Assembly (NCBI GenBank): GCA_964581365.1
Contig: CAZOOF010000003.1
Coordinates: 28,042 to 92,041, forward strand
Direction of reading: 5' to 3'
DNA length: 64,000 bases
Source: an uncultured Chromatiales bacterium
GTDB taxonomy: Bacteria > Pseudomonadota > Gammaproteobacteria > SZUA-140
Position numbers and translations under genes: made by a program. Shown in pieces: positions 33,931-51,474 of the stretch. Below the pieces are notes generated by a model. It worked only from the letters and a program-made list of their open reading frames with translations, was not told the DNA's origin and did not search any database. Within the stretch, counting starts at the first letter, position 1; each line of letters starts with the position of its first letter.

Positions 33931-34023
33931 ATGCTGTCGACAGGACAAGTCCTTATCATGTACGCCGTTTGGTTCCCGCTTGCCTTCGCTCTTGCAGCCT
34001 ACTTGGTCAAGAAGAACTCCTGA
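33931..34023 (+). CDS. 30-aa single-TM microprotein MLSTGQVLIMYAVWFPLAFALAAYLVKKNS (not in ORF track)
   Basis: Translated by hand; G-rich RBS 33919-33925; one hydrophobic helix followed by KK. Confidence 0.6.
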   Translation: MLSTGQVLIMYAVWFPLAFALAAYLVKKNS

Positions 34024-34106
34024 CTGAACTGCCGTCTCGTTCGCGGTCATCCCGATGATTTACGGTGGACCCAGCGCGAGGCCCCGTCGCTCAGGCGACA
34101 GGAAGA

Positions 34107-34135
34107 TTGACGGCCTTTAATCACCTACGTATCAT
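34107..34135 (+). promoter_or_regulatory. Sigma70 promoter for cytochrome c4
   Basis: TTGACG(34107-34112)-17 nt-TATCAT(34130-34135). Confidence 0.65.
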
Positions 34136-34187
34136 GTGCCATTTGGCGCTGGGCGTACATAATAATGGTTATATTGAGAGGGATCCA

Positions 34188-34958
34188 ATGCGACGCTTAA
34201 CGACCCTGGCTTCGATCCTCACCGGTGCACTGCTCATCGCGGCGATGCCTCAGGCACATGCCGCCAAGTCGGCAGTGACTGCCAGCCTTTCGAATGGCGA
34301 AGCCATCTTCACCCAGGGCAAGGGCAATGCCCCCGCCTGCAGTTCCTGTCACGGTGCCGATGCCATGGGTATCGATGCCATGGAAACGCCCCGCCTGGCC
34401 GGGCAGGTCGCCGAGTTCCTGGTCAAGCAGCTCGAGGACTTCGCTACCGATCGCCGCATGGGTCTGGGCGCCGGCGTGGTAATGAACGTGTTCGCCAAGG
34501 AGCTGTCTGCCGAAGACCGGCGTGACGTCGCGGCGTACCTGTCGATGCAGGGTCGTGATCGCGCGACTTCCGCGACCGGTGCTTCCAATCTCGCAGAGCT
34601 GAAAGAGATGGGCATGGCCGTCGGTGAGCCGCATCTGGGACTGCGTCTGGTCAACTACGGCGCGCCGGAGCGGGACATTCCCGCCTGCCGTTCCTGCCAC
34701 GACTTCAACGGTCGCGGCGTGGAGCCGATCTACCCGATGCTCAGCGAGCAGAAGTACGTTTACCTGGTCAACCAGCTGAAGTACTGGCGTGATGGTTCGC
34801 GCAACAATGATCCGCGCGAGCAGATGCAGAAGGTTGCCCGCAACATGACGGACGAGGACATCATCAACGCGGCTGCATATCTGACCGGAGCGTCTCCGTA
34901 TCCGGCGGGCAGCATCCGCATCCCCGAGCGTCATGTGAGCTTCAAGATCGTCAAGTAA
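34188..34958 (+). CDS. Diheme cytochrome c4-type periplasmic protein
   Basis: Signal peptide, CSSCH and CRSCH, PRLAGQ...LVKQLEDF, Met ligand candidates VMNVF and QMQKV. Confidence 0.92.
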   Translation: MRRLTTLASILTGALLIAAMPQAHAAKSAVTASLSNGEAIFTQGKGNAPACSSCHGADAMGIDAMETPRLAGQVAEFLVKQLEDFATDRRMGLGAGVVMNVFAKELSAEDRRDVAAYLSMQGRDRATSATGASNLAELKEMGMAVGEPHLGLRLVNYGAPERDIPACRSCHDFNGRGVEPIYPMLSEQKYVYLVNQLKYWRDGSRNNDPREQMQKVARNMTDEDIINAAAYLTGASPYPAGSIRIPERHVSFKIVK

Positions 34959-34970
34959 TCCGCGCCAACC

Positions 34971-34998
34971 CGCATCCCGGCACCGGAGCCGGGATGCG
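34971..34998. repeat. Perfect 11-bp-stem inverted repeat
   Basis: CGCATCCCGGC-accgga-GCCGGGATGCG. Confidence 0.8.
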
Positions 34999-35014
34999 GA
35001 GCAGATCAGAGACG

Positions 35015-35045
35015 AAAAAAAGGGCGGGAACATCCGCCCTTTTTT
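35015..35045. terminator. Bidirectional intrinsic terminator
   Basis: A7-GGGCGG...CCGCCC-T6. Confidence 0.85.
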
Positions 35046-35100
35046 ATTATGAATCATGCGCTTATTTGCATGTTAGCGCCAAGTGCGAGATAATCCGGGC

Positions 35101-35697
35101 ATGTCTGGACGACAGTCGCTCAAGCAGGGAGAGAAGATTCTTTTCGGCATCGCGATCGTGTTTATCGCCTTTGCCGTGATCGCTTACCTGGCTCTTGAAG
35201 CCTATCGCTTGAGTGTCGGAGGGCAGGTCTTCGAGGCCACCACGCACTTCACTCTGTCCGAAGAAGGGCATCGCGGTTCGGAAATCTTCCGTGCGAACCG
35301 CTGTACCTCATGTCATCGCGCGATGCGCAACGGCACCAATATGGGTCTTTCCCTCGACGGGATCGGTTCCCGCCGTACTCAGCAGTGGATCTACGATTTT
35401 CTCCGCGACCCTGAGGCCACTTACGGTGCGCCGACTTTCGATCATGGCTATCCGCCGAAGGAGGCTGCCTACGTTTCGACGCTTCCGCCGGACGATCTGC
35501 GCCTGATCGCTACCTTCCTGTCCGAATTGCGCTCGGATCAGGGTTCATCGTCCGCGCCGATGCCGCCGTCAGGTGATTCCGCTTTCATCGACAACATGCT
35601 CAGGCTGTTTGCTCCGGGCAGCTGGGACGAGAAGTACGGCGATGTCCGTCAACGCCAGCCGGCGCCGGATGAGGCCCGGGAGCCAGCCGAACAGTAG
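35101..35697 (+). CDS. Membrane-anchored monoheme cytochrome c (NorC/CcoO-like fold)
   Basis: N-terminal TM, CTSCH, LDGIGSRRTQQWIYDFLRDP. Confidence 0.85.
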   Translation: MSGRQSLKQGEKILFGIAIVFIAFAVIAYLALEAYRLSVGGQVFEATTHFTLSEEGHRGSEIFRANRCTSCHRAMRNGTNMGLSLDGIGSRRTQQWIYDFLRDPEATYGAPTFDHGYPPKEAAYVSTLPPDDLRLIATFLSELRSDQGSSSAPMPPSGDSAFIDNMLRLFAPGSWDEKYGDVRQRQPAPDEAREPAEQ

Positions 35698-35795: not shown

Positions 35796-36335
35796 ATGAG
35801 CGACCACAATGCGCCCTGGGCGAAAGATGTCGAGTACACCCGCTATACGGTGATGTTCGTTTATGCCTGCATCATCTACGCCATCATCGGATTCTCATGG
35901 GGAGCGCTGATGGGCGGGATTCAGGAGTTCAGGCACTTCGTCGATCATCGGATGCATGGTCAGTTGATCGTGCGCGCCCACACCCACGTCAATCTGCTGG
36001 GCTGGGTGGAAATGGCGATCTTCGGAGCGGTCTACTATTTCATTCCTCGCCTGGTGCGCAGGCCCATCCATAGCATGACCTTGGTGAAGGTTCACTTCTG
36101 GATGCATAACGTCGGACTGGTGGGCATGGTGGTCCTTTTCACCATCGCCGGCGTGATCGGCGGTATGGCGAGCGTGGAGATGAGCCCGGAAGAGGTCGAG
36201 CCGATGGTCAGTCCGCTGCTGGCCACCATGGGTATCTTCGGAACCCTCGTCCTGTTGGCCAACATCATCTGGGGCTATAATATTTTCCGCACCTGTGCAG
36301 GATGGTCGAAAGGCAAGGAGTGGCAGGAACGATGA
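35796..36335 (+). CDS. Stand-alone 4-TM heme-copper oxidase repeat protein (HCOH-type) no. 1
   Basis: RAHTHVNLLGW...YYFIPRLVRRPIHS...VHFW matches helices IX-XII of the CcoN in this window (VAHAHLALLGF...FHFW). Confidence 0.8.
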   Translation: MSDHNAPWAKDVEYTRYTVMFVYACIIYAIIGFSWGALMGGIQEFRHFVDHRMHGQLIVRAHTHVNLLGWVEMAIFGAVYYFIPRLVRRPIHSMTLVKVHFWMHNVGLVGMVVLFTIAGVIGGMASVEMSPEEVEPMVSPLLATMGIFGTLVLLANIIWGYNIFRTCAGWSKGKEWQER

Positions 36336-36844
36336 ACAGGCACTACCGGACGGCTGTTGCGCTTCTCTTCACCACACTGCTCCTCGCTGGTTGTGAGATG
36401 CAGGGCGGCGTCAACGTCGGTTCAATGGCGCCTTCGATTACCACCAAGACCCTCGCGGACGTTGGCGGGGACTTCAGCCTCATCACGACCTACCGCTATC
36501 CCGACGAGCGCATGTACCAGTACTCCCTGGACGATGCGCTGAAATCCGGCAAGACCATCGTGCTGGAGTTCGCGACCCCGGGGCATTGCACGGTCTGCGA
36601 CAAGCAACTGCAAATGCTCAAGGGGCTGATGGATAAGTACGAATCCGAAGTGCTGTTCCTGCATATGGATCAGTACCGCAATCCGGAAGCTTTCACCGCC
36701 TTCAAGGTCATGGGTGATCCCTGGACCTTCGTCATCGACGGAAACAGCGTAGTGCAGTTCAAGCGTGCCGGCAGGGTCCTGTACGATGAACTCGATGCCA
36801 CGCTGGTGCGGGTGCTCCGGCAGCAGCAGACCGGGATGAGCTAA
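36332..36844 (+). CDS. Thioredoxin-fold lipoprotein
   Basis: Lipobox LAGC, CTVC motif, DPWTFVID cis-Pro region. Confidence 0.75.
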   Translation: MNRHYRTAVALLFTTLLLAGCEMQGGVNVGSMAPSITTKTLADVGGDFSLITTYRYPDERMYQYSLDDALKSGKTIVLEFATPGHCTVCDKQLQMLKGLMDKYESEVLFLHMDQYRNPEAFTAFKVMGDPWTFVIDGNSVVQFKRAGRVLYDELDATLVRVLRQQQTGMS

Positions 36845-37303
36845 GTGGCCGCAGCGGTATCGTATCGCCTGTCCCAGGACAGGAAAGGCATGTGGTGGGA
36901 TCTTCTTCTGTACATCCCGACCGTAGTGTTTCTGTTCGCCACTGGCCTCAAGCTATGGTTCAGCAGCAGCTACCAGAACTGGTCTTATTTGCTGTTTTTC
37001 ATGGCGTTTTTCTTCCTGTTCGCGGGGGCGAGCAGGGTGCTGTCGGGACGGCTCATGCTGTTCGGCTCCTCGCCGGTAGCCATCTCCTGCGACCGCGAAC
37101 AGATCAGCCTCGAACTGCGCAACGGCAACCGTGTCGATCTCGTCAAGGATGTGCGCTTTTTCTCCGACTACGCCGGCAAGTCCTTCGGACTCACCGGCAT
37201 GGACCTGTCGGGACGGCGCCGTCAGTTCGTTTTTCATCGGGGCCAGTTTCCCGATGCCGAGGCCTACCGAAACCTGCTTGATCGCCTTGCGGTATTCAAG
37301 TGA
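36845..37303 (+). CDS. Hypothetical 2-TM protein with soluble C-terminal domain
   Basis: GTG directly follows the upstream stop; two hydrophobic segments. Confidence 0.7.
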   Translation: MAAAVSYRLSQDRKGMWWDLLLYIPTVVFLFATGLKLWFSSSYQNWSYLLFFMAFFFLFAGASRVLSGRLMLFGSSPVAISCDREQISLELRNGNRVDLVKDVRFFSDYAGKSFGLTGMDLSGRRRQFVFHRGQFPDAEAYRNLLDRLAVFK

Positions 37304-37328: not shown

Positions 37329-37523
37329 TCAGCGTGACCTGCGGCGGCGGACGACGTCTGCGGCCATGGCGCCGATGACACCGGCGCCGATGAGACAGGC
37401 TCCAGTGATGACCCAGCGTTCGGTTTGCGGGCTCACGAGTCCCCCGATCAGCATGTGGATCGAGAAGCCCAGGATGAACAGGGACGATACTGCCACGATA
37501 GCGTAGAAAATAATCTCTTTCAT
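37329..37523 (-). CDS. 64-aa 2-TM membrane protein
   Basis: MKEIIFYAIVAV...RRRRSR; two TMs and a basic tail. Confidence 0.7.
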   Translation of the reverse strand: MKEIIFYAIVAVSSLFILGFSIHMLIGGLVSPQTERWVITGACLIGAGVIGAMAADVVRRRRSR

Positions 37524-37883: not shown

Positions 37884-38159
37884 ATGAATAAACTTGGCTT
37901 CAGCAAAACCTTCTGGGTAGCCCTCATCGGTGGCGGTGTCACTGGCATGGGTAACGGTAGCGTATTCGGCGCCGCGCTCATGTGTGCGCTGGGACGCGGC
38001 TACTTCGAGGACTGGGGTGGCATGGGTATGGATGCCTACAATGCCGTTACGTTCCAGGGATTCGTGAACTGGTGCATGATCATCTTCGGTGTGGCGTTCA
38101 CGATCATCGTCATGATCGCTCTGCGGCGTCACGGCGAGCTGGAAAAGGCAACGAACTGA
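37884..38159 (+). CDS. Gly-rich 2-TM protein, first gene of the oxidase operon
   Basis: RBS GGAGGGG; high-expression-type codons (ttc, atc, ggt, aac). Confidence 0.75.
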   Translation: MNKLGFSKTFWVALIGGGVTGMGNGSVFGAALMCALGRGYFEDWGGMGMDAYNAVTFQGFVNWCMIIFGVAFTIIVMIALRRHGELEKATN

Positions 38160-38212: not shown

Positions 38213-38308
38213 ATGTTGGCAACGTTTGCTACGATTGGCTGTATCCTGCTCGCGTTTTCGAGCATGTGGTTTGCTTGGTATCTTCTGATGCCGGGCGATC
38301 ATACCTGA
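38213..38308 (+). CDS. 31-aa single-TM microprotein MLATFATIGCILLAFSSMWFAWYLLMPGDHT
   Basis: RBS GGGGAGG 38197-38203; lies directly upstream of ccoN. Confidence 0.7.
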   Translation: MLATFATIGCILLAFSSMWFAWYLLMPGDHT

Positions 38309-38387: not shown

Positions 38388-39794
38388 ATGTTCAAGTATC
38401 TGCTGGCCAAAAACGAGGAGATCCCGCGCGGTACAGCGGCGGTCTACTTCGGTGTTTCTTCCATCATCTGGTTCGTGATCGGGACCGGCCTCGGCTCCTT
38501 CAACGCCGCCAAGCTCGCGTTCCCCGACTTCGTCACCGGCTCGGAGCTGTTCTCCTTCGGTCACATGCGCCAGGTCCACGTGATGGCCGTCATCTTCGGC
38601 TGGATCTCGATGGCTTTCGCCATGGCCATGATGTACATCACGCCGGCACTGGGAAATACCAAGCTCTGGTCTGAGAAGCTGGGCGTCTGGAACTGCTTCA
38701 TCTGGAACTTCGGTCTTTCTCTCGGCCTGACCGTGCTGTGGGCCGGAATGAGCTCTGGCCGTGAGTACTCGGACTTCCCGTGGTTCATCGACCTGGTGAT
38801 TCTGTTCGGCATCGTTCTGCCGCTCGGCATCAACGTGTGGATGACCATCATCAAGCGCCGCACCCAGGGTATCTACACCACCAACTGGTTCTTTGCCGCC
38901 GGCTGCTTCATGCTGTTCATCGTGCTTCTGGTCGGTAACCTGCCGGAGTACTTCCAGCTCACGGGTCTGACCGAGGCCTATCTGACCTGGTGGTTCGCGC
39001 ACAACGTGCTTGGACTGTGGATCACCCCGATCGCTGCGGCCATCGCGTACTACACCGTGCCGAAGATCACCGGTAATCCGCTGTACTCGCACCGCATCGG
39101 CCACCTGCACTTCTGGTCCGTGGTGGTGTTCTACTCCACGCCCGCTGCGCATCACCTGATGTCGGCGCCGCTGCCGGAGTGGCTGAAGTCCTTCGCATCG
39201 GTGGAGGGCGTGCTCATTCTGGTGCCGGCCATTGCGTTCGTGTCCAACCTGCTGCTGACCATGACCGGCAAGTGGCGGTACTTCGTCGACAACGTCGAGA
39301 TCAAGTTCACGATTACCGGCGTGCTGATGGCGATCCCGCTGAACATGCAGGGCGGATTCCAGCAGACCCGTGCCATCAACTGGTACATCCATGGTACCGG
39401 CTGGATCGTGGCGCACGCACACCTGGCACTGCTCGGCTTCTCGACCTTCCTCGAGGCTGCCGCCGTGTACTATGGTCTGCAGACGATCCTGCGTCGCAAG
39501 CTCTACTCGCTGGCGCTGGCTAACTTCCACTTCTGGTTCCTGCTGATCGGTTTCACGATCTACTGGATCTCCATGACGATTGCGGGCCTGATCCAGGGTG
39601 CCGGCAAGATCTATGAAGTGCCCTACATCGACGTCGTGATCGCGGAGCATCCGTACATGATCGCCCGTTGGGTTGGCGGCACCATGGTGTTTACCGGAAA
39701 CCTTGTCTGGCTCTACAACATGTGGATGACTGCGCGTGAAGGCACTGTGATCCCCGCGGGCCGTCTGCCGCACGAGATCGCCTACGAGCGCTAG
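38388..39794 (+). CDS. ccoN: C-family (cbb3-type) heme-copper oxidase subunit I, divergent
   Basis: H64, WWFAH205N, Y249-x5-H255H256, H343-x-H345 and REY motifs; 12 TM. Confidence 0.92.
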   Translation: MFKYLLAKNEEIPRGTAAVYFGVSSIIWFVIGTGLGSFNAAKLAFPDFVTGSELFSFGHMRQVHVMAVIFGWISMAFAMAMMYITPALGNTKLWSEKLGVWNCFIWNFGLSLGLTVLWAGMSSGREYSDFPWFIDLVILFGIVLPLGINVWMTIIKRRTQGIYTTNWFFAAGCFMLFIVLLVGNLPEYFQLTGLTEAYLTWWFAHNVLGLWITPIAAAIAYYTVPKITGNPLYSHRIGHLHFWSVVVFYSTPAAHHLMSAPLPEWLKSFASVEGVLILVPAIAFVSNLLLTMTGKWRYFVDNVEIKFTITGVLMAIPLNMQGGFQQTRAINWYIHGTGWIVAHAHLALLGFSTFLEAAAVYYGLQTILRRKLYSLALANFHFWFLLIGFTIYWISMTIAGLIQGAGKIYEVPYIDVVIAEHPYMIARWVGGTMVFTGNLVWLYNMWMTAREGTVIPAGRLPHEIAYER

Positions 39795-39840: not shown

Positions 39841-40791
39841 GTGGCATTCCGTGAATATAAAATAGGTGCGCGACTGTTCGGTGTTGCGCTCGGCGGATCG
39901 ATGATGATCACCATCTACATGCCGAGCCTGGACATCGTTCAGGTGGCGTCGACCGAGATGGGCCTGCGCAAGGGTCTCATGTACGGCCGAGTCGGCGGGT
40001 TCTCGGTCGAAGATCCGTTCCTGCAGGGGGCGGGCAAGCCGGTTACCGTGGTCCTGCGTAAGGATCCGCGGAATGGTGAGCCCATCGATGAGACGTACGC
40101 CTACGTCTACGAAGCGGGCATTCCGTTCACCAGTTCCATCCGTCACCCGCGCATCATGGGTGAAGGCGTGGAGGACCTGAGTCTGCAGCAGGGTCGTATC
40201 GGCGAAGCTGATCAGAATCGGGGCGCTGTGTTCCTGGTGGTCGAAGGCCGCTGGAACGGTGAGCCGACGCACTACATCGAGAACGCGACGGCTACCCGCA
40301 ATTGGACGCCCGAGCTCATCCGCAACGCGGTTAGCGATCAGGACATGCACTATGTCGGCTCCGGCAAGATCATGTTCGTGCGTGAAGGCTGCTGGTGGTG
40401 TCATACGCTCCTCCCGGAGCAGACGCAGGACTGGCAGGCGTTCGGCGCTCCGCCGCGGCTGGGTGACTTCAACAGTGAGTCGCCGACTGCGTTCGGATCC
40501 GACCGCAAGGCGCCCGATCTGCTGCATGTTGCCTCGCGCAACTCCTCACGCGAGTGGATGGTGATGCACTTCTTTAATCCGCGTCTCGTTCAGCCGCACT
40601 CGATCATGCCCCGCTACGACTATCTGTGGGGTGAGGTTGATGCGGATGGCAACCGGATCGATTACAAGAAGTGGCGTGCCGAGTACAGCGAGTACGCCTC
40701 CGGCAAGCGGATCTATCCGCCGGAAGTGCCGGAGCCTGCCGCTGATAGCGACGCCCGCTATCTGATCGACTTCGTGCTGAGCCTCAAATAA
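39841..40791 (+). CDS. ccoO: cbb3-type subunit II with N-terminal periplasmic insertion
   Basis: REGCWWCH, GSDRKAPDL, HFFNPRLVQPHSIMPRY. Confidence 0.88.
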   Translation: MAFREYKIGARLFGVALGGSMMITIYMPSLDIVQVASTEMGLRKGLMYGRVGGFSVEDPFLQGAGKPVTVVLRKDPRNGEPIDETYAYVYEAGIPFTSSIRHPRIMGEGVEDLSLQQGRIGEADQNRGAVFLVVEGRWNGEPTHYIENATATRNWTPELIRNAVSDQDMHYVGSGKIMFVREGCWWCHTLLPEQTQDWQAFGAPPRLGDFNSESPTAFGSDRKAPDLLHVASRNSSREWMVMHFFNPRLVQPHSIMPRYDYLWGEVDADGNRIDYKKWRAEYSEYASGKRIYPPEVPEPAADSDARYLIDFVLSLK

Positions 40792-41461: not shown

Positions 41462-41593
41462 ATGATCGATGTCGACAATCCACCGCTCATAGTCCTGATC
41501 CCGATTATCATCGTGTTCGTGGCGCCGTTCATTTACAGCTTCTTCGTCGACAAGTACGACAAAGCTACGCCGCCGCTGCGAGACGACGAGTAA
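41462..41593 (+). CDS. 43-aa single-TM microprotein (CcoQ-like position) MIDVDNPPLIVLIPIIIVFVAPFIYSFFVDKYDKATPPLRDDE
   Basis: RBS AGGAGA 41450-41455; not in ORF track; followed by hairpin and terminator. Confidence 0.75.
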   Translation: MIDVDNPPLIVLIPIIIVFVAPFIYSFFVDKYDKATPPLRDDE

Positions 41594-43298: not shown

Positions 43299-44356
43299 CC
43301 TCGACTCGTGCCTTGCCGCGTATAGATGAGGCCATCCGGCGGCGCCGCAAGCGCTACCTGACGGCGACGATTATCACCTGTATTGCTCTTGCCATGGTCG
43401 GTGGGAGCCTGCACATCGTGCAGCTCGGAGCCAAGCGCATGGAGGAGATGCGGGGCAAGGCGAGCTACGATGTCAGTGAGATGCGCTCGCGGATTCGGGC
43501 TGCTGGCGAGGAACTTCATCGTCACCGCCTCCACGAGGAAAGACAGACATTCGTCGAGTCCTATTCGGTGGAGGAGGCCGAGGCACTGCTCACGCCGGAG
43601 CAGTGGGCCGAGCTGGAGACGATGGTGACGATTCCCGCTGGGCCCTTCATCATCGGTACTAACCGGCCACGCAGCGCCGTGCAGGATCAGCCTGAACACC
43701 GGATAAATCTCCCTGCCTTCCGCATCGACACGTATCCGGTAACGAATGCGCAGTATGCCCGCTTTGTCGCGGCCACCGGGCATCGCCCGCCGCTGAACTG
43801 GGATCAGGGCCGGATTCGCCCGGGTACCGAGCTGCATCCGGTCACCATGGTTTCCTGGTATGACGCTAACGCGTATGCCAGCTGGGCCGGGAAGCGTCTG
43901 CCGACGGAAGCTGAGTGGGAAAAGGCCGCGCGAGGACCGGATGGCAAGCGCTGGCCATGGGGTGATCTCATGGATGCATCGCGCCTCAATACCTATTACA
44001 ACGTGGGCCGGACCACCGAGGTGACGCGTTACGTCTCCGGCGCCAGCGAGTACGGTGTCATGGACCTTGCCGGCAACGTCAGTGAGTGGACGAATGACAA
44101 CTTTCGCCCCTATCCCGGCAGCGATGCGCCGCCGGAGGTGTTCGAGGCGAAGATTGCGGTGGCCACAACGCCGCTGGATGAGGCAATGCAAGTTGTGGAT
44201 TTGGTCCCGGTGGACGGCAGCTACAAGGTGCTGCGCGGGGGTTCGTGGAAGAGCGACCCGTTCTCGACCGCTGCCTACCATCGGAATTATTCATGGCCGC
44301 ACTACGCTTCCGACTTCTTCGGGTTCCGGACGGCGGCAGATATCGTTACGGAATGA
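43295..44356 (+). CDS. Membrane-anchored FGE-sulfatase (NirV/pFGE-like) domain protein
   Basis: YPVTNAQY, RLPTEAEWEKAARG, DLAGNVSEW, RGGSW, GFR. Confidence 0.9.
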   Translation: MTSTRALPRIDEAIRRRRKRYLTATIITCIALAMVGGSLHIVQLGAKRMEEMRGKASYDVSEMRSRIRAAGEELHRHRLHEERQTFVESYSVEEAEALLTPEQWAELETMVTIPAGPFIIGTNRPRSAVQDQPEHRINLPAFRIDTYPVTNAQYARFVAATGHRPPLNWDQGRIRPGTELHPVTMVSWYDANAYASWAGKRLPTEAEWEKAARGPDGKRWPWGDLMDASRLNTYYNVGRTTEVTRYVSGASEYGVMDLAGNVSEWTNDNFRPYPGSDAPPEVFEAKIAVATTPLDEAMQVVDLVPVDGSYKVLRGGSWKSDPFSTAAYHRNYSWPHYASDFFGFRTAADIVTE

Positions 44357-44601
44357 TGAACGCTACGACTCTACGCAAGCTCTGGCTGTACTGTACGCTG
44401 GCCTTGCTGCCGCTGATGCCGGGGACCTCCCTTGCGTTCGACAGTTACAGGTACCTGCATGTCACCATCGACACGATCTGGTACATATTCGTGTTCCTGC
44501 TGCTCATTCTGCTGGTTCCATTCATCCTCATGGCAATCCTTTACTGGTGGACTCTGCGCCAGCGCAAGCTGGACAGCGAGCACTCCGAACCGAAACCCTG
44601 A
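44353..44601 (+). CDS. Small protein with signal peptide and one TM
   Basis: MMNATT...SLA/FDSYRY then a 25-aa hydrophobic helix; ATGA overlap. Confidence 0.65.
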   Translation: MMNATTLRKLWLYCTLALLPLMPGTSLAFDSYRYLHVTIDTIWYIFVFLLLILLVPFILMAILYWWTLRQRKLDSEHSEPKP

Positions 44602-44617
44602 TCAGGGGCAGCACCAC

Positions 44618-44995
44618 GTGCACGCACGCTTTCACACCGCTGTCTGCGCCTTTCTGATGCTGCTGGTGGCAGCGCTGATGCTGGCGCCGGCCGGCGCCCG
44701 GGCGGCGGCGGCCGAACAGGGCACATCTTCCGATACCCAGGTGATTCAGGCATTTTCCGAGGCAATGCGTGAGAGTGCGCAACGCGCCGAAATCACCGAG
44801 CAGCGCAAACACGCCATTCTGTTTCTGATGGGCGTCGTGCTGCTGGTCTGCATGCTTGGCACCGCTGGCCTGGGTGTGGCTATGGCAATCTTTGGCAAGA
44901 AGGTGTTTGTGGCGCACACGATCTTTGCCGGACTCAGCGTTACTCTCGCCCTGGCGCATGCCGTGGTCGCAGTCGTCTGGTTCTGGCCGTTCTGA
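44618..44995 (+). CDS. Small membrane protein with H-x13-H helix
   Basis: GTG start, signal peptide, 2 TM, HTIFAGLSVTLALAH. Confidence 0.7.
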   Translation: MHARFHTAVCAFLMLLVAALMLAPAGARAAAAEQGTSSDTQVIQAFSEAMRESAQRAEITEQRKHAILFLMGVVLLVCMLGTAGLGVAMAIFGKKVFVAHTIFAGLSVTLALAHAVVAVVWFWPF

Positions 44996-45063: not shown

Positions 45064-47688
45064 ATGAGCCGCCGTTTCCTTTATCTGCTTTACGCCTGTT
45101 CGGGAGCGACCAGCCTCGCCTTCGAGGTGTTGTGGGCGCGCATGCTTTCCCTGCAGTTCGGCGTCAGTATCTTCGGTGTCGTGGTGACCATCGCCGCCTT
45201 CATGGCCGGTCTGGGCCTCGGCTCGCTGTTCGGTCTGCGGCTGGGGCGGACCAGCCGCAGACCTCTGGTCGCTTTTGCCTGTCTGGAGGGGGGCATTGCC
45301 ATCTATGCGCTGGCATTGCCGTCGCTGCTGTCGGGTGCCGAATCTTTCCTGTTGCAAGTGGCTGCCGGGGCGCCACTACAGACCTGGTATCTGTTTCAGT
45401 CCGTCGCGCTGCTGGCGCTGATTCTGCTGCCGGCTGTGGCGATGGGCGCGGGCTTCCCCCTGGTGCTCAAGGCGCTCGGCGCGCGCCCGCATGTCCTCGG
45501 CACCCTGTATGGTGTCAACGCATTCGGTGCCGCTCTGGGCGCTTTGCTGCCCCTGTGGCTGCTGCCCCGGTTTGGTTGGATGGCGGCAGTCGAAGCGGTA
45601 GCTGTGCTCGGTCTGCTGGTGGGTACATTCGCTGGCGCGCTCGCCTGGCGCGGCGAGTTTCGTGTGATTCCCGAACCGGGGATGAGGGCGGTCGATCGGC
45701 AGCGGCCAGCTCTGGTCTCACTGGTGGCCTACGCGGTCATTGGCGCCGCTGCCATCATGCTCGAGGTGGCCTGGACCCGCCTGTACGGGATGGTTCTGCT
45801 GCGCACCGAGTATGTGATGGCGGTGATTCTCGCCGTCTATCTCCTCGGTATCGGCGGCGGCAGTCTGCTTGCGCGCTGGCTGCGAGATTCGCGCTGGCTG
45901 GCCGTGTTCCCTCTGGCGGCCGCATTGCTGGCTTTACCCAGCCTGTGGCTCTTGCCGGCGATCTCGACCTGGTCGCAGGGTCAGGATTTCGGTTCTCTAT
46001 GGACGGCGCTGCTGGCTGAAGGGCTGGTGTTGGCGGCAGTGACTTTGCCTGTGACACTGCTGCTTGGCGCCTGGCTGCCGCTGCTCGCCCGGCGCTACGG
46101 CGACGAGGGATCATTCGGCCCGCTGTTCTACGGCGTGAACTCGGTCGGTTCGGCGCTGGGGGGCCTGCTCGCCGGTTTCGTGTTGATTCCATTGCTCGGG
46201 ACACCGGCAACCCTGGTGGCGGCGGCGCTCGCGCTTTTCGTTGCCGGTTGCGTCTGGGCTCCGTCCCCTCGTATCTGGCTGGCCTTCCCCCTGCTGCTCG
46301 TCGCGTTCTGGCCGGTGACGGATTTCCCTCCGGTTGCCAGGCTGGTGCCCGGGATGCACGCCGCCAGTGAGGACCTGTACCGCTATGAGGACGCGATGGC
46401 GATCACGCACGTGATCGAGCAGGCCGATGGGCAGCGTCTGCTGCTGAGCGATCTGCAGCGTATGGATGCCTCCAGCGAGCAGGCTGCGGTCGAACTGCAG
46501 AAGAACCAGGCGCGACTGCCGCTGATGCTGCATCCCCGTGCGGAATCGATCCTGTTTCTGGGGCTGGGGACGGGTATATCGGCTGCCGGCGCGCTCGAGT
46601 TTCCGGAGCTGCAGAAGCGCGCTGCGGTCGAGCTTTCGCTCGGTTCGATTCGCGCCGCGCGGGACTGGTTCGCTCCGGTCAATGAGGGGGTCATCGGACA
46701 GATGACCGTGGTGCGCGATGATGCCCGCCGTTATCTCATGGCGGATGAGGCTCAATGGGATGTCATCGTCGGTGACGTGTTTCATCCCGATCTGGTCGGA
46801 CGCAGCGCGCTGCTGTCCGTTCAGCAGTTCGAGCGTGCACGCTCACGTCTGGCACCGCAGGGCATTTTCGTGCAATGGCTGGCTCTGAACCAGTTCGACC
46901 ACGATTCCCTGCAGGTGGTGCTGCGCAGTTTTTCCCGGGTGTTCCCGGACGGCGTGATGTTCATGGACGGGTTTCGCATCGCGATGGTCGGCGGCCTGGG
47001 GGGAAGGGACCCGGTTCGCTGGATGGATTCGCTCCGCGCCCGCGACGAGGCTCTGGAGGCTGGCGAAGGAATCTGGACCTGGCTCGGGCGCTATTGGGGC
47101 ACGATTCCGCCGGATGACGGCGGACCGGTGCAGGATGAGTGGCGTCCCCATATCGAGTTCCGTCTGCCACAAGCGCGCTATGGCGGTGGCCTGGGACTCG
47201 ATCAGTTGCTCGATTGGTTGCTGCGCATCCGTCCTGAGTCGTCGCGCGCCGCCAGCGAGCTTGGCGTGACGCCCGCCGACCGCGAACGTTTCGAGGCCTG
47301 CTATACAGCCTCGGATCTGGCACTGAAAGCCTGGCTTGCGGGACTGAGGGGCGATGTGCCCCAGTCGCGGCGTCTGCTGCGCTTTGCCTGGGAAGCGAAC
47401 CCGGAGGATCGCTGGACAGGTTTCTCGCTGGCGGACAATATTCTTGCGGAACTGCAGGAATCACCGCGGGGGCTGGAGGACAGGCGTCGCGTACTGGAGG
47501 CCGTGCTTTCCATCAGGCCGGATCATGCCGATACCCTGCGCGCGCTGTGGCATCTCGACGCCGCCCTGGGGCGCCATGAGAGCGCTGCGGCCTGGTTCGA
47601 GCGCCTTGCCGAAGTCAGTCCGCTCGATCGCGAGGTGACGGCAGCGCGGGCTGCTGAGCACGGTGCGGCAACGCCGCCTCCAAAGTGA
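45064..47688 (+). CDS. Fused polytopic membrane domain plus spermidine-synthase-like SAM-binding domain
   Basis: Duplicated TM motifs (EVLWAR/EVAWTR; YGVNAFG/YGVNSVG), LFLGLGTGI, DARRYL, DVIVGDVFHP. Confidence 0.85.
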   Translation: MSRRFLYLLYACSGATSLAFEVLWARMLSLQFGVSIFGVVVTIAAFMAGLGLGSLFGLRLGRTSRRPLVAFACLEGGIAIYALALPSLLSGAESFLLQVAAGAPLQTWYLFQSVALLALILLPAVAMGAGFPLVLKALGARPHVLGTLYGVNAFGAALGALLPLWLLPRFGWMAAVEAVAVLGLLVGTFAGALAWRGEFRVIPEPGMRAVDRQRPALVSLVAYAVIGAAAIMLEVAWTRLYGMVLLRTEYVMAVILAVYLLGIGGGSLLARWLRDSRWLAVFPLAAALLALPSLWLLPAISTWSQGQDFGSLWTALLAEGLVLAAVTLPVTLLLGAWLPLLARRYGDEGSFGPLFYGVNSVGSALGGLLAGFVLIPLLGTPATLVAAALALFVAGCVWAPSPRIWLAFPLLLVAFWPVTDFPPVARLVPGMHAASEDLYRYEDAMAITHVIEQADGQRLLLSDLQRMDASSEQAAVELQKNQARLPLMLHPRAESILFLGLGTGISAAGALEFPELQKRAAVELSLGSIRAARDWFAPVNEGVIGQMTVVRDDARRYLMADEAQWDVIVGDVFHPDLVGRSALLSVQQFERARSRLAPQGIFVQWLALNQFDHDSLQVVLRSFSRVFPDGVMFMDGFRIAMVGGLGGRDPVRWMDSLRARDEALEAGEGIWTWLGRYWGTIPPDDGGPVQDEWRPHIEFRLPQARYGGGLGLDQLLDWLLRIRPESSRAASELGVTPADRERFEACYTASDLALKAWLAGLRGDVPQSRRLLRFAWEANPEDRWTGFSLADNILAELQESPRGLEDRRRVLEAVLSIRPDHADTLRALWHLDAALGRHESAAAWFERLAEVSPLDREVTAARAAEHGAATPPPK

Positions 47689-47720: not shown

Positions 47721-49049
47721 ATGTACCACTCCAAGGCACTGTCCAGTATCCCGGTCGTAGTGACCGCGGACGCAAGGGCCGGACGGAGATTGCGCGGAAG
47801 GCGTCGTGCGGTACAGCTCGGCACCCTCCTGCTCGCGATGCTCATTCCGCTGTCCGGTCTATTCCGTATCGATCCGGTGGCTGGCGCCTTCGTGGTGCTC
47901 GACCGTCAGATCTGGTTCGCCGATTTCTACATCGTCGTCGGCCTGTGGATGGCTGTTTCCAGTGTGCTGGTCCTGACCTATTCCTTGGTGGGAACCGCAT
48001 TCTGCGGCTGGTCCTGCCCGCAGAATACGCTGGCGGAGTGGGCCAACCGCATGACGACACGGCTGCTGGGGAAGCGTGCCCAAATCAATCTCGACGGGGA
48101 ACCGATCAAGGTTTCCGCGGGCAAGGACAAGGCGCTCAACTGGGTGATTCTCGGCAGCCTGTTCCTGCTCGCCGCGATGGTGATCGCCATCATTCCGATG
48201 CTGTATTTCTACACGCCCGAGCTGATCTGGCGCTTCATCACTTTCCAGCACGACGCCCGACTGGCTGATTCCCTGCACTGGATCTACATGATCTTCGTGC
48301 TGGTGATGTTCGTGAACATCGCCTTCGTGCGCCATTTCTGGTGCCGCTTCATGTGTGTGTACCGGGTCTGGCAGCATACCTTCAAGACGCGCGAAACGCT
48401 GCATATCGCCCATGACAAGAGTCAGCCCGACGAGTGCGCGCGCTGCAACTTCTGTGAAACCTCGTGTTTCATCGGCATCGATCCGCGTGAAACGGTGGTC
48501 TATGATGCCTGTATCAATTGCGGCGATTGCATTACCGCGTGCAGTTCGATTCGCGGTGCGCGCAAGACCGGCAACAGCCTGCTGCGATTCGAATTCGGGG
48601 AGCGCAGCGAAGAGGCGGACAGACAGCAGGATCGCGGCCGCCACAGTAACGTCGGTTCCGTGATGAAGCGCGCTCCCTGGGCGACGGCGCTGACCGTCTT
48701 TGGTCTGGTTCTGTTCGCCTGGGGCATCATCACCTATGATCCCGTCCATCACACGGTTTACCGTGCCGAGTCGGTGCAGGGCGGGCAGATCAACGATTAT
48801 CGCGTCAACGTCGCGAACAAGCTCTATCGGCCCATGAGTCTGACCGTGAGCTTGGAGGGCCTGCCGGACGGGGCGTATCGACTGGCGTCTGGCGTGGTTG
48901 ATTTTACCGAAGCCGGTCGGCAGGACGTCCGTCTGGAAATCGCCAATTCCCTGTCCCCCGGACTGTATCCGTTCCTGGTGCATGTCGATTCCGAGGACGG
49001 CAAGCGGCGCACGTTCCGCGTCCATCATTTGGTCCAGGAGGGTGCATGA
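47721..49049 (+). CDS. ccoG: CcoG/FixG-like 4Fe-4S membrane protein
   Basis: CGWSCPQ, WCRFMC, CARCNFCETSC, CINCGDCITAC; C-terminal Ig-like domain. Confidence 0.82.
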   Translation: MYHSKALSSIPVVVTADARAGRRLRGRRRAVQLGTLLLAMLIPLSGLFRIDPVAGAFVVLDRQIWFADFYIVVGLWMAVSSVLVLTYSLVGTAFCGWSCPQNTLAEWANRMTTRLLGKRAQINLDGEPIKVSAGKDKALNWVILGSLFLLAAMVIAIIPMLYFYTPELIWRFITFQHDARLADSLHWIYMIFVLVMFVNIAFVRHFWCRFMCVYRVWQHTFKTRETLHIAHDKSQPDECARCNFCETSCFIGIDPRETVVYDACINCGDCITACSSIRGARKTGNSLLRFEFGERSEEADRQQDRGRHSNVGSVMKRAPWATALTVFGLVLFAWGIITYDPVHHTVYRAESVQGGQINDYRVNVANKLYRPMSLTVSLEGLPDGAYRLASGVVDFTEAGRQDVRLEIANSLSPGLYPFLVHVDSEDGKRRTFRVHHLVQEGA

Positions 49050-49507
49050 GTTCGGACAAGTCTACGCAGGAAGCAAAGGGCAAGGATACGCGCCCGCTGG
49101 ATCCGGTAGAGTCAGAGTGGGGTCAAGTCTCGCCGGACCATTACGGTTATGCCTCCGAGGAGGAGCGGCTGGCGAAGCGCGGCCTCGAGGACTGGGAGCT
49201 GGTCGATCGGATCTCCGAGTCACAACGCGGTGTGCCGGTGTGGTTCATTGCGGTGATCATCATGGTGCTGCTGGTTGCCATCGGTCTCAGTTTCCCGTTC
49301 TGGGGAGACCGGCCGGGCTACGAGCGCGAATGGATCAACTGGGGTTTTGGTGCCGCAATCGTCTATCTGCTGATCTTCGGCACTTTCGTCTATTTCATGG
49401 TGCAGCTGTACGGTTCGCGCTGGGCAGGGCGCCTGGACTCCGACCCAGACAAGAGCGACGAAAAGAACGCGACGTCCGAAAGGAAGGATGCCGGCGACGC
49501 TCCATGA
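49046..49507 (+). CDS. 2-TM paralogue of the heme-less CcoP-like subunit
   Basis: ISESQRGVP..TM..LSFPFWGDRP versus ITEDNNRLP..TM..MTFPLWGQRP in 40808-41443. Confidence 0.7.
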   Translation: MSSDKSTQEAKGKDTRPLDPVESEWGQVSPDHYGYASEEERLAKRGLEDWELVDRISESQRGVPVWFIAVIIMVLLVAIGLSFPFWGDRPGYEREWINWGFGAAIVYLLIFGTFVYFMVQLYGSRWAGRLDSDPDKSDEKNATSERKDAGDAP

Positions 49508-49824
49508 TCCGTGCTGTCGTAGTCGCTGCTCTGCTGCTGTTGATGGCAGGATGCTCGGGAGATTCCGCTCCCACATCCTCCGCGCCCGCGGCTTCGTCCG
49601 CAGACAAGTCCTCGCGTAATATAAACCGGACCTATCTGCATTATTGCAGTGGCTGCCACGGTGCGCCGCGTCCGGGTCAACACACAGCGCGGGAATGGCC
49701 CAGCATCGTCGCTCGCATGCAGCAGCGTCGGATCAGCGCCCGGCTCGGTCCGATTCCGCCGCAGGAACTGCGCGAGATTCTCGATTATCTCCAGGAGAAT
49801 TCGGCGGGCGGTCCGCTGCAATGA
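49504..49824 (+). CDS. Small monoheme cytochrome c lipoprotein
   Basis: Lipobox MAGC, Ser-rich linker, CSGCH, WPSIVARM. Confidence 0.85.
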   Translation: MIRAVVVAALLLLMAGCSGDSAPTSSAPAASSADKSSRNINRTYLHYCSGCHGAPRPGQHTAREWPSIVARMQQRRISARLGPIPPQELREILDYLQENSAGGPLQ

Positions 49825-50219
49825 GAGGCGATATGTTCAGAGTTCTGGTTTTCCTCGTCTCCGGCCTGATGCTGCTCACCGCCTGTACGGACGGGAAGGA
49901 GCATGCCCAGCTGGAACCGCAGCACTGGGAAGATATGGTCGTCGCCGTGGAGTTCCGTCCCGTGCCCTTGCGTCCCGGCATGACTGAATTCATGGTGATT
50001 GCGACCCGAGTCGACCGCACCAGGGCGGACGACATGATCGTCGCCCTGCGCAGCGATCCGGGCGCTTCATGGCAGCAGGCGATCCAGGATGGCAAGACGG
50101 GCGTCTATCGCCGGGCAGTACCGCTGCGTGAGGGCGAGCAGATTCTGTATGTCGAGCTCCGGCGCGGTCTGGAGCGGAAGGTGCTCGAGTATCCGGTGCG
50201 GGTAGGCCCAAGTCGCTAG
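49821..50219 (+). CDS. Lipoprotein, possibly FixH/YtkA-like
   Basis: Lipobox LTAC; beta-strand pattern ending G-x-Y...L-x-x-G. Confidence 0.6.
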   Translation: MRGDMFRVLVFLVSGLMLLTACTDGKEHAQLEPQHWEDMVVAVEFRPVPLRPGMTEFMVIATRVDRTRADDMIVALRSDPGASWQQAIQDGKTGVYRRAVPLREGEQILYVELRRGLERKVLEYPVRVGPSR

Positions 50220-50231
50220 ACTTCGGCCGGT

Positions 50232-50756
50232 TCAGGCCTCATTGCCGGAAGGTCGCCGGCGCTTTGCCAGCGTCCTGCTCTGCCGCCAATGGCGAAGGAG
50301 CAGAATCTTTTCTCCCCCCCGCGCTTCGGCGCAGCGCGAACAGGTCAGATGACCGAGCAGGAGCTCGCGAGGCATCTTGCCGGCATCGAGCAGACGACTC
50401 TGGATATCTCGCACTACCGGCCGCAGGCTGCCAAGGTTTCCCTGATGGAGCCAGGCGTAAACCTGATAGGGGCGGGGGAGCCAGCCGACCAGGTGCGAAG
50501 GTGACTGGGTATTCTCCAGCAGGCGAATGAGGGTGCCGCGGAACATTCCGGTACGCACCAAGGCCAGCCCCGGCCATTTCTCCTTCAGTCCGAGGCGATC
50601 GATGTTGGCCTGTTGCCGATGCAACTGCGCGTCATACCCGATCGGCATGTGCAGGAGCATCGGAACCTGTACCCGATGGACACAATGTCCACCGAGATCA
50701 ACGTCCTGCGCATGCCAATCAGGCCAGGTCGACGGGCATCCGCATTCCAGGATCAT
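50232..50756 (-). CDS. Conserved hypothetical protein with CxC and CxxC motifs
   Basis: ECGCP at the N-terminus and TCSRC near the C-terminus; ATGA overlap with the upstream gene. Confidence 0.7.
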   Translation of the reverse strand: MILECGCPSTWPDWHAQDVDLGGHCVHRVQVPMLLHMPIGYDAQLHRQQANIDRLGLKEKWPGLALVRTGMFRGTLIRLLENTQSPSHLVGWLPRPYQVYAWLHQGNLGSLRPVVRDIQSRLLDAGKMPRELLLGHLTCSRCAEARGGEKILLLRHWRQSRTLAKRRRPSGNEA

Positions 50757-51271
50757 GCCTTTCGCGAGTAAACCGTTCGCGCCGTCATGAATACGTTGGC
50801 GAAGAAGATCCAGAAGCCCATACCCATTGCCGTCGAGATGGTGGCGATCAGGGGGCGATAGTAGCGGTGAATCTCGTAGATGGCATCCGTCTCACCCTGC
50901 AGCAGCAGGCGGCCTTCAGTGATGCCGAAAATCATGAGCGTGGAATAAAAACCGGCCACGCCGAGCGCGGTCCACCAGAACGAGTGATCCACCAGCCGCA
51001 TGGACCAGATCGGACGCTTGGAGATGGTGGCAAACAGGTAGTAGGTGACCGCCATGCACAAGAGTACTACCCCGCCCACCACATTGATATGGGCATGGGC
51101 GAGTGGGTCGATCATGTGTCCGGGACCACCGTACGGGCTGCCGATCGAATCCAGCCACGCCCGCACTGGCGGGATTACCTGGATGACGCCATGAACCGTG
51201 CCGATGAAGAAGAATGTGGCCGAACCTACTAGAAATTTCAGTAGCTTACGCAGATCCTGTTCTGCTGACAT
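50753..51271 (-). CDS. Stand-alone 4-TM heme-copper oxidase repeat protein (HCOH-type) no. 2
   Basis: LAHAHINVVGG...YYLFATISKRPIWS...HSFWW. Confidence 0.8.
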   Translation of the reverse strand: MSAEQDLRKLLKFLVGSATFFFIGTVHGVIQVIPPVRAWLDSIGSPYGGPGHMIDPLAHAHINVVGGVVLLCMAVTYYLFATISKRPIWSMRLVDHSFWWTALGVAGFYSTLMIFGITEGRLLLQGETDAIYEIHRYYRPLIATISTAMGMGFWIFFANVFMTARTVYSRKA

Positions 51272-51318
51272 ATCCTGCCCCGATGGCGCTGGCACAAGGC
51301 GCGCGGGTTGTCTGGCTG

Positions 51319-51351
51319 AAAAAAAACCCGGCGTGCGGCCGGGCTTTTATT
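51319..51351 (-). terminator. Intrinsic terminator
   Basis: Minus strand GCCCGGC-loop-GCCGGG followed by T8. Confidence 0.8.
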
Positions 51352-51366
51352 GATACGGCGCCGCAA

Positions 51367-51474
51367 TTACTTCTTGCGGTTGATGCTCTCCAAGGCGCGC
51401 TCGCTGATGTAACCGCCCAAGAACACGCTGAGACCAAAGAAGATAATGATCGGCACCAGAATTTCCGGCCACAT
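51367..51474 (-). CDS. 35-aa single-TM microprotein MWPEILVPIIIFFGLSVFLGGYISERALESINRKK
   Basis: RBS GGGGAGGG 8 nt upstream, own terminator; not in ORF track. Confidence 0.75.
   Translation of the reverse strand: MWPEILVPIIIFFGLSVFLGGYISERALESINRKK

Follow-up and report, generated by a model that had tools for sequence, protein, structure and literature searches.

Canonical cbb3 (C-family) oxidases, known as CcoNOQP with CcoGHIS in P. stutzeri (PDB entry 3MK7) and R. capsulatus and as FixNOQP with FixGHIS in B. japonicum, are built around a CcoN subunit of 12 transmembrane (TM) helices, which carries heme b, the heme b3–CuB site, a helix-VII Tyr and a Ca site, together with a monoheme CcoO partner. 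A distal type of cbb3 oxidase is described from neutrophilic Fe(II) oxidisers (the subtree of Ducluzeau 2008, with Sideroxydans ES-1, Zetaproteobacteria and Ferrovum JA12). It is without subunit III, stands beside a c4 cytochrome of the Cyc1 type and is very highly expressed (PMC8788666, PMC7029218, PMC10734462, PMC4725956). Published work on this type is limited to ccoN, ccoO and cyc1. In Ca. Tenderia electrophaga, Tel_00410/00415 is labelled 'Complex IV (1)' and Tel_00440/00445 'Complex IV (2)', and Tel_00520 is a ccoN fragment on the opposite strand (PMC5371394). Fig. 2B of a 2022 preprint shows 26 conserved Ca. Tenderia genes in the order also found here, and its authors propose that they encode a complex in the membrane along with proteins for its assembly, 'a sort of alternative complex IV' (bioRxiv 10.1101/2022.05.06.490989). 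Here we describe a locus of this kind in a 64-kb stretch of DNA (64,000 nucleotides, the window) from an uncultured Chromatiales bacterium (contig CAZOOF010000003.1). It spans 33.9–51.3 kb of the window, where a divergent CcoN/CcoO pair of the C family lies amid about 25 conserved genes. We consider it probable, though well short of certain, that the locus encodes a distal-type cbb3 cytochrome c:O2 oxidoreductase working without the diheme CcoP.

A comparison with the canonical enzymes shows that the 12-TM CcoN with its heme b, heme b3–CuB, helix-VII Tyr and Ca sites, the monoheme CcoO partner and nearby CcoG-like and CcoS-like genes are common to both. However, CcoN of the locus is only about 31–33% identical to the canonical proteins, and the diheme CcoP is replaced by a heme-less anchor protein. 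CcoQ, CcoH and CcoI are not found in the locus. CcoO has a periplasmic insert of about 110–150 aa between its TM anchor and heme domain, CcoN differs by E323Q, Y317A and S240G (P. stutzeri numbering), and about 15 additional conserved genes are present. The features of a distal cbb3 region are all found here: ccoNO without ccoQP, an adjoining Cyc1-type c4 gene, truncated CcoN, CcoG-like and FGE-fold genes, and the conserved gene order. The same ccoNO-only oxidase with a Cyc1-type c4 occurs in the iron oxidisers named above. The block itself recurs in metagenome-assembled genomes (MAGs) of Sideroxydans, Gallionella, Ferrovum and Mariprofundus, where CcoN is 77–86% identical. This bears out the link to neutrophilic Fe(II) oxidisers that an earlier sequence-only reading of this DNA had suggested. 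In contrast to the hosts of the described distal enzymes, the present host belongs to a gammaproteobacterial lineage of compost, manure, leachate and sludge and is no known iron oxidiser. The Ca. Tenderia region, with its 'cbb3-1/cbb3-2', matches the locus gene for gene, including the diheme and monoheme cytochromes, truncated CcoN, thioredoxin, CcoN, CcoO and CcoG, and nothing essential differs. Its 'Ser/Thr kinase' is the FGE-fold protein of our locus, and Tel_00520 agrees in position and strand with N4b, the second of two stand-alone CcoN units described below. The locus is already known from comparative genomics, and the sequence-only reading overrated its novelty. The present analysis adds to the published picture that the conserved block reaches into Zetaproteobacteria and Nitrotoga, and it contributes a further host lineage. 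Residue changes that are invariant in CcoN, two conserved microproteins (p31 and m64) and the structure of the transcripts are also added. The FGE-fold protein is seen to have lost catalytic residues and the S-adenosylmethionine (SAM) fold protein to have kept its active-site signature, and 'truncated CcoN' is recognised to correspond to exact single repeat units with triplicated relatives elsewhere.

The putative catalytic subunit CcoN (38388..39794, + strand) is predicted to have 12 TM helices and matches PF00115 with E 9e-77 as a divergent C-family heme-copper O2 reductase subunit. It is 31% identical to P. stutzeri CcoN (E 1e-60). Residues H64, H205, H255, H256, H343 and H345 align to P. 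stutzeri H60, H207, H257, H258, H345 and H347 and cover two ligands of heme b, one of heme b3 and three of CuB; all six are invariant in 84 loci. The helix-VII residue Y249, the putative cross-link Tyr, aligns to P. stutzeri Y251 and is invariant in the same loci. The Glu of the Ca site (E126) is kept as well, and several channel residues also align and are invariant in the 84 loci. With 220.6 bits the protein is under the NCBIfam ccoN equivalog cut-off of 583 (TIGR00780), and by sequence comparison it is a divergent subfamily. Q321, A315 and G238 are likewise invariant in the 84 loci and stand in the places of P. stutzeri E323, Y317 and S240. At the partner of the proximal His this clade has MQGG, whereas the canonical gamma- and alphaproteobacterial enzymes have FEGP. 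We take E323 to be the Glu that forms a hydrogen bond with the proximal His of heme b3; for E323, Y317 and S240 alike, the roles are assumed from the structure of the P. stutzeri enzyme. Taken as a set, the CcoN residues would fit a C-family O2 reductase with a modified proton path and heme b3 environment. The exchange of Glu for Gln at the proximal-His partner and the two altered channel residues could also be read as signs of an enzyme that is mainly a NO reductase or another non-O2 reductase, and cbb3 enzymes do have a side NO-reductase activity. However, the enzyme keeps its complete CuB His triad and its cross-link Tyr, the NOR-type Glu cluster is missing, the similarity to NorB is far lower than that to CcoN (E 6e-8 against 1e-60), and the hosts are microaerophilic O2 respirers with this enzyme as their dominant oxidase. 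We therefore regard such a function as extremely improbable.

The partner of CcoN is the monoheme subunit II CcoO316 (39841..40791, +), which matches FixO with E 2e-16, the match being limited to aa 174–265. A CWWCH heme motif and a SIMP Met ligand are found in it, and its length of 316 aa is conserved among relatives. The insert (aa 65–170) is predicted with pLDDT 82–96 as a small alpha/beta domain, for which a Foldseek search returned no PDB fold match, noise alone (best E 0.09). The heme domain of the same model is poorly predicted. The alignments show the predicted catalytic pair to consist of CcoN, with its heme b, heme b3–CuB and His-Tyr site intact, and CcoO with an extra periplasmic domain.

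Conservation was analysed with one genome per species. Relatives of this CcoN are found at 358 loci, of which the best 80 show 84–99% identity and belong to gammaproteobacterial MAGs, Ca. Tenderia, Gallionella, Sideroxydans, Ferrovum and Nitrosomonadales. The core block runs p91-p31-CcoN-CcoO-P211-p43-p109-CcoS-like-cytc162-p157-FGE-p82-p125-Spm874-CcoG-p153, and this order is kept in gammaproteobacterial MAGs, Ca. Tenderia, Gallionella, Sideroxydans, Ferrovum, Ca. Nitrotoga and Zetaproteobacteria. Across these lineages CcoN is 77–99% identical and the accessory proteins about 35–75%. Such identity of CcoN across three proteobacterial classes indicates that the enzyme is strongly constrained. 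Gene presence was counted in the 38 loci having full 10-kb flanks: p91, CcoN, CcoO and P211 are found in all 38, p109, the CcoS-like S93 and cytc162 in 37, p43, p157, FGE, p82 and p125 in 35, Spm874 in 34, the CcoG-like gene in 33 and p153 in 31. The upstream module c4-cytc198-N4a-Trx-p137 is present in 27–29 of them. It is inverted in Sideroxydans, and in Gallionella-type loci lipo132 and N4b are moved from the far end to a place beside it and retained (N4b in L061, L069 and L070). A second scan with the CcoS-like motif QFDEDIKY gave matches in at least 120 species genomes. It widened the range to Zetaproteobacteria, Ca. Nitrotoga, Thiotrichaceae and Ferrovaceae, with the whole core block in the same order and CcoN 77–83% identical. 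The gene order recurs in well over 100 species-level genomes, far beyond chance. Gene-neighbourhood conservation had been named in advance by the sequence-only reading as the point on which it could fall; the accessory genes co-occur tightly with this CcoN clade, and they are not all known cbb3 assembly factors, since just two of them, the CcoG-like and the CcoS-like protein, map to such factors.

Near-identical contigs are found in four metatranscriptomes (two from compost and two from an anaerobic digester), in which contig depth gives a crude measure of expression. Genes p91, p31, CcoN, CcoO and P211 lie on one 3.8-kb RNA contig (37696–41470, depth 40), so that CcoN and CcoO are co-transcribed with p91, p31 and P211. 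The c4 gene is on an RNA contig of depth 35 (33877–35336), whose 5' end near 33876 is shared by three runs, and S93 and cytc162 are on another of depth 25 (42047–42811). Low RNA depth is observed for N4a (1–4), FGE (at most 7), Spm874 (0) and CcoG (2–4). This pattern suggests an abundant structural core with its donor and rare accessory factors. The sequence-only reading had proposed a large oxidase supercomplex plus either a second miniature heme complex or a dedicated maturation pathway. Contig depth favours a small abundant core (c4; p91-p31-CcoN-CcoO-P211; CcoS-like plus cytc162) with accessory genes of low abundance, and of these alternatives it leans towards a dedicated maturation or auxiliary gene set. 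High expression is also reported for relatives: the distal ccoNO of Sideroxydans ES-1 is at the 99th expression percentile in the iron-oxidiser literature, 'Complex IV-2' is among the highest-expressed Ca. Tenderia genes in the literature on that organism, and CcoNO is abundant in the M. ferrooxydans PV-1 proteome as cited by other papers. At position 40796, in the spacer between CcoO and P211, one base is missing in all three RNA runs that cover the spacer with long contigs, which represents strain variation.

The probable electron donor is the periplasmic diheme cytochrome c4 (Cyc1-like; 34188..34958, +), which was already noticed in the sequence-only reading. It has a signal peptide and two CxxCH motifs and matches Cytochrom_C with E 2e-15, and a Cyc1 homolog is found in the same cluster of Sideroxydans ES-1. 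Two TM-anchored monoheme cytochromes c are present in addition, cytc198 (35101..35697, +; one TM helix and CTSCH) and cytc162 (42340..42828, +; one TM helix and CKSCH). They are paralogs (hhalign E 8e-37). The sequence-only reading had described them as NorC/CcoO-like; two anchored monoheme paralogs do exist, but they resemble CcoO in particular only to a weak or moderate degree (hhalign probability 91% for cytc198, TM anchor included, and 62% for cytc162), about as much as they resemble c4 domains. A further monoheme cytochrome c of 106 aa, a lipoprotein with lipobox LMAGC and a CSGCH motif (49504..49824, +), was recognised by direct sequence reading, in agreement with the lipoprotein cytochrome claimed before. 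Its start overlaps the p153 stop codon (ATGA). It is conserved in at least 12 loci and one Zetaproteobacteria locus and absent from public gene calls. In the proposed mechanism, electrons would pass from the diheme c4, directly or via the anchored monoheme cytochromes, to the heme c of CcoO and from there to heme b and the b3–CuB site, where O2 would be reduced and protons would be pumped.

P211 (40808..41443, +) is a heme-less protein with a CcoP-like N-terminal GITE motif followed by a TM helix, a helical middle part and a second TM helix. It matches FixP_N with E 2e-4, under the Pfam cut-off, and its residues 29–55 align to canonical CcoP 18–44 (hhalign E 0.013), with GGITEDNNRLP... against DGITELDTPVP.... 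Residues E35, N37, N38 and P41 are invariant. Its paralog p153 (49046..49507, +; hhalign probability 99.7%, E 8e-27) is heme-less and CcoP-N-like, and gave no significant match to CcoP on its own. Neither protein has any CxxCH motif, as a diheme CcoP would. PDB searches with the P211 profile and its N-terminal peptide recovered neither CcoP nor CcoH. The two heme-less CcoP-like proteins of the sequence-only reading are therefore clear paralogs of each other, but their link to CcoP is weak. P211 would take the membrane position of CcoP, keeping just its N-terminal anchor and conserved Glu. This Glu is presumably at the entrance of the single proton channel. Conserved single-TM microproteins occupy positions analogous to CcoQ, and p91, p31 and p43 would be small structural subunits in place of CcoQ-type peptides. 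The small membrane protein p91 (37884..38159, +) is the first gene of the core oxidase operon; in a comparison of p91 with canonical CcoQ, no similarity was found. The 31-aa single-TM microprotein p31 (38213..38308, +), immediately upstream of ccoN, is a candidate small subunit, and its motif LAFSSMWFAWYLLMPG is conserved in 77 of the 84 loci. The single-TM microprotein p43 (41462..41593, +) is conserved in 75 loci.

Two stand-alone CcoN repeat units, correctly recognised by the sequence-only reading and confirmed by PF00115 matches, lie towards the two ends of the locus. N4a (35796..36335, +) is a 4-TM unit that matches PF00115 positions 310–430 with E 8e-16. N4b (50753..51295, − strand; PF00115 E 3e-9) is convergent with the main cluster and clearly related to N4a (hhalign E 2e-67). 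The best-matching repeat of CcoN is its last one, helices IX–XII at residues 320–449 (blastp E 3e-17, 31% identity), and there are weaker alignments of N4a with repeats one and two as well (7–117 and 206–243). Through this protein, which aligns to all three CcoN repeats, the ancient triplication of subunit I can be seen in the sequence itself. The AHTH motif of N4a falls on CcoN AHAH, the ligand of hemes b3 and b. The AF2 model of N4a has pLDDT 88, and its top Foldseek matches are cbb3 CcoN proteins (TMq 0.76–0.78, rmsd 1.8 Å over about 160 residues). By these comparisons N4a and N4b are exact single four-helix repeat units of subunit I with the HxH heme-ligand pair kept. Nothing in N4a corresponds to the CuB ligands, which means that on its own it cannot function as an oxidase, and the same reason applies to N4b. 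Most likely the two proteins would bind heme b and serve as auxiliary heme proteins or assembly partners. A recurring motif, H-x-(N)LLGW ... YYxIP..RPxYS..L..HFW, is observed between N4a and the CcoN repeats. Among 1.8 billion cluster representatives 781 relatives of N4a are found, many of them stand-alone proteins of 150–190 aa. Some are 410–420 aa long, with three tandem N4-like repeats and an HxH in each (P0132, P0140, P0141 and P0145; loci L208 and L209), which means that three N4-like units can form one 12-helix protein. P0140 lies on archaeal-type contigs and adjoins genes for ScdA_N/DUF1858 and DUF438-hemerythrin-PAS_10 proteins, which hints at an O2- or NO-related role. A literature search for stand-alone subunit-I repeats gave nothing relevant. 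On a megaplasmid of Ruegeria pomeroyi (L087, 13126–15030) a second 'cbb3-type subunit I' is found beside the canonical ccoNOQP, with a 157-aa 'cytochrome C oxidase subunit I' before it and SCO and a formate/nitrite transporter after it; this 157-aa protein was considered as an N4 relative and rejected, as it is not N4-like.

These units raise the question whether the locus encodes several separate complexes, in which N4a with cytc198 (in the upstream module with c4, Trx and p137) and N4b with cytc162 and p153 would be one or two copper-less heme complexes resembling heme-copper oxidases (HCOs). Three 4-TM units might form a 12-helix body, with a different electron transfer, for example from periplasmic cytochromes to the membrane or the quinone pool. 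Profile comparison gives three clean paralog pairs, N4a/N4b, cytc198/cytc162 and P211/p153; N4a adjoins a CcoO-like anchored cytochrome in parallel to CcoN and CcoO, the upstream module moves as a unit and can invert or relocate, natural proteins with three tandem N4-like repeats exist, and the Ca. Tenderia authors themselves labelled Tel_00410/00415 as 'Complex IV (1)'. However, the RNA depth of N4a is 1–4 against 40 for CcoN, the missing CuB ligands leave no oxidase chemistry, the upstream module is not beside the core in about one quarter of the full-length loci, no quinone-site signature is found, and oligomerisation is without support. We judge separate complexes to be rather unlikely. 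The narrower proposal is of an HCO-like membrane complex with heme and no copper, which N4a and N4b would form either as homo- or hetero-trimers or jointly with p153 and the anchored monoheme cytochromes. This proposal is quite doubtful; if true, it would be a working example of the superfamily's pre-triplication building block. With its best match in the last CcoN repeat at 31% identity, N4a would fit a derived fragment equally well as a relic. N4a and N4b could instead be assembly chaperones which mimic the last four CcoN helices. While cofactors are inserted, they would act alongside the CcoS-like protein and either keep heme b/b3 bound for a time or dock to a folding intermediate of CcoN. 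They keep exactly the helix-X His pair that ligates both hemes, N4 RNA is of low abundance, and the N4 genes co-occur with other maturation genes. Against this, the 73–88% identity among N4a orthologs would rather be expected of a structural or redox protein, both diverged paralogs are retained, and such a factor is known from no characterised oxidase; we hold a chaperone role to be very unlikely.

We thus come back to the distal-type cbb3 oxidase without diheme CcoP as the preferred interpretation, against which several points have to be set. With its invariant Q321, A315 and G238, the enzyme may depart from the P. stutzeri model in proton uptake and in the tuning of heme b3. The similarity between P211 and CcoP is weak, with a Pfam match under the cut-off, an hhalign probability of 2–3% and a PDB profile search in which CcoP is absent. 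The subunit composition is deduced solely from synteny and from contig depth, which is a poor expression measure. Finally, the paralogs among N4a, N4b, cytc198, cytc162 and p153 could equally build separate complexes. The locus provides a defined parts list of a putative core oxidase and about 15 co-inherited proteins. The clade appears to be the main and very highly expressed terminal oxidase of Gallionellaceae, Zetaproteobacteria, the acidophilic Ferrovum, the cathode-feeding Ca. Tenderia and the nitrite-oxidising Ca. Nitrotoga, in which the efficiency of the last step and O2 affinity matter because growth yields are tight. In addition, the single-repeat N4 proteins offer a handle on the origin of the 12-helix subunit I.

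The low-expressed genes would form a dedicated maturation and auxiliary set. S93 (42072..42353, +) is CcoS/FixS-like with a C-terminal extension (FixS E 2e-3) and an invariant NEQFDEDIKY, and it would act in cofactor insertion. The CcoG-like polyferredoxin (47721..49049, +) has two CxxCxxCxxxC motifs, matches Fer4_5, Fer4_18 and, below cut-off, TIGR02745 (E 1e-29), and gave no match in the PDB. All its cluster Cys residues are invariant, and Cu(II) reduction would be its task. The sequence-only reading had named CcoG-, CcoS- and CcoH-like factors. The first two are supported by these matches and by QFDEDIKY, but a CcoH-like protein was not found; no CcoH/FixH domain, CcoI or P-type ATPase was found in the window. 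The thioredoxin-fold lipoprotein (TlpA/DsbE-like; 36332..36844, +) has the lipobox LLLAGC, AhpC-TSA and Thioredoxin matches and a CTVC motif with invariant C86 and C89. It may provide thiol reduction for heme c or Cu handling. It is not a cytochrome.

Of the two unusual enzymes proposed by the sequence-only reading, one retains its active-site signature and the other does not. FGE353 (43295..44356, +) is a TM-anchored periplasmic FGE-fold protein (PF03781 E 3e-57), as had been claimed. Its periplasmic domain is Cys-free in alignments with PDB entries and has no Cu-binding catalytic Cys pair as in FGE. With EgtB/OvoA it shares the FGE-like C-terminal domain alone (residues 99–350 match EgtB 162–434), and a TM anchor is found instead of DinB. 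Because the catalytic Cys pair and the DinB iron domain are missing, FGE- or EgtB-type chemistry is unlikely. Compared with FGE, EgtB, PvdO and PorK, which share the fold, FGE353 is distinguished by its TM anchor and a conserved N-terminal region, and it is nearer in kind to FGE-fold members that are non-catalytic or of unknown function. It would serve as a periplasmic scaffold or chaperone. Its sole Cys, C29, is in the TM helix and is invariant, as is H40. The TM anchor and linker (43295–43600) are conserved to the same degree as the FGE domain.

Spm874 (45064..47688, +) confirms the membrane-fused SAM enzyme of the sequence-only reading. It consists of about 12 TM helices, a spermidine-synthase-like fold for SAM or decarboxylated SAM (dcSAM) and TPR repeats. 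With 79.9 bits it is above the NF037959 cut-off of 40, the only match of the locus over a curated cut-off; it is under every speE equivalog cut-off and matches spermidine synthases in the PDB with E 8e-7. With the NF037959 family it has the membrane domain and the spermidine-synthase-like Rossmann fold in common, and it differs by an extra N-terminal TM block of about 225 aa and the C-terminal TPR region. The GxGxG loop, E523, D553, D566, D571, H574 and D576 are invariant. D571-x-x-H574-P-D576 replaces the D-x-x-D-P of spermidine synthases, so that the putrescine-binding second Asp is exchanged for the invariant His574. These residues suggest that Spm874 is probably an active SAM/dcSAM enzyme with a different acceptor, and it would work as a membrane-fused SAM/dcSAM-dependent transferase. 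A literature search for the function of fused MFS/spermidine synthases gave nothing relevant, and we know of no tested function in the NF037959 family.

The remaining genes encode mostly small membrane proteins. The claim of at least four microproteins is supported by proteins of 31, 43, 64 and 82 aa, all conserved in other genomes. Besides p31 and p43 these are the 64-aa 2-TM microprotein m64 between p137 and p91 (37329..37523, −), which is called in public assemblies and conserved in 46 loci with 48–92% identity, and the small single-TM protein p82 (44353..44601, +), conserved in 61 loci. The 2-TM protein p137 (36890..37303, +), found in 27 of the 38 full-length loci, and the 4-TM protein p157 (42825..43298, +) have no family match. 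For the 2-TM protein p109 (41730..42059, +) the C-terminal helix resembles the membrane anchors of cytc198 and cytc162 (hhalign probability 87–93%) with a common GEKIL motif, as though it were an anchor without its cytochrome. All-against-all hhalign of the small membrane proteins gave no further hidden paralogs except this likeness. The membrane protein p125 (44618..44995, +) has an invariant H100-x13-H114 and may be a candidate heme-b binder; the pair sits in its last hydrophobic stretch, and the spacing recalls the heme-ligand pairs of cytochrome b helices. The lipoprotein lipo132 (49821..50219, +; lipobox LLTAC) is conserved in 13 loci.

Gene models for 33.9–51.3 kb were built from open reading frames (ORFs) with high third-position G+C in a window of about 62% G+C, from public calls on identical contigs, by direct reading and from cross-genome conservation. 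The full order is c4, cytc198, N4a, Trx lipoprotein, p137, m64 (−), p91, p31, CcoN, CcoO316, P211, p43, p109, S93, cytc162, p157, FGE353, p82, p125, Spm874, CcoG-like, p153, lipoprotein cytochrome c, lipo132 and N4b (−). ORFs, Pfam and NCBIfam matches and conservation agree with the sequence-only reading of an atypical heme-copper oxidase locus of the C family in which N-, O- and P-like proteins occur as paralogs. About 28 genes had been claimed, and we count about 25 conserved ones. The cluster does lie within 33931–51474, as that reading had placed it, but the conserved region begins earlier and includes a 472-aa polytopic membrane protein (32322..33740, −), which is divergent from the c4 gene and matches no Pfam family at E<0.1. 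It gives tblastn matches of 31–87% identity in about 45 of the 80 related loci and is gene 1 of the conserved Ca. Tenderia region; by these matches it belongs to the conserved region. The ORFs 33777–34058, 50289–50504 and 50232–50660 (−) were discarded because they are not conserved in related loci, and 37425–37862, 37982–38308 and 44432–44995 (long form) were rejected as wrong frames or over-extended starts. An Rfam scan of 32–52 kb gave zero RNA family matches, no FNR/Anr box (TTGAT-N4-ATCAA, at most 2 mismatches) is found upstream of either mapped 5' end, and promoter and terminator scans gave counts near chance level.

Ordinary chromosomal genes flank the locus upstream (rpoN-PTS, lpt, ubiA, fpg, psiE, spoT and recG) and downstream (a dynamin-like GTPase, yggT, proC, pilT and ptsP). 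A mobile-element origin was considered and rejected, as the flanks are housekeeping genes and CcoN proteins in a plasmid collection are at most about 33% identical. The dynamin-family GTPase (666 aa; 51604–53604, −) lies directly upstream of N4b on the same strand and is not seen beside the cluster in the other lineages with available flanks. Near-identical DNA is found in metagenomes from compost, manure, leachate, activated sludge, biofilm and digesters, and a gammaproteobacterial MAG from biofilm (JAVEZY01) is the genome nearest to it. The host is therefore not obviously an organism of iron mats.

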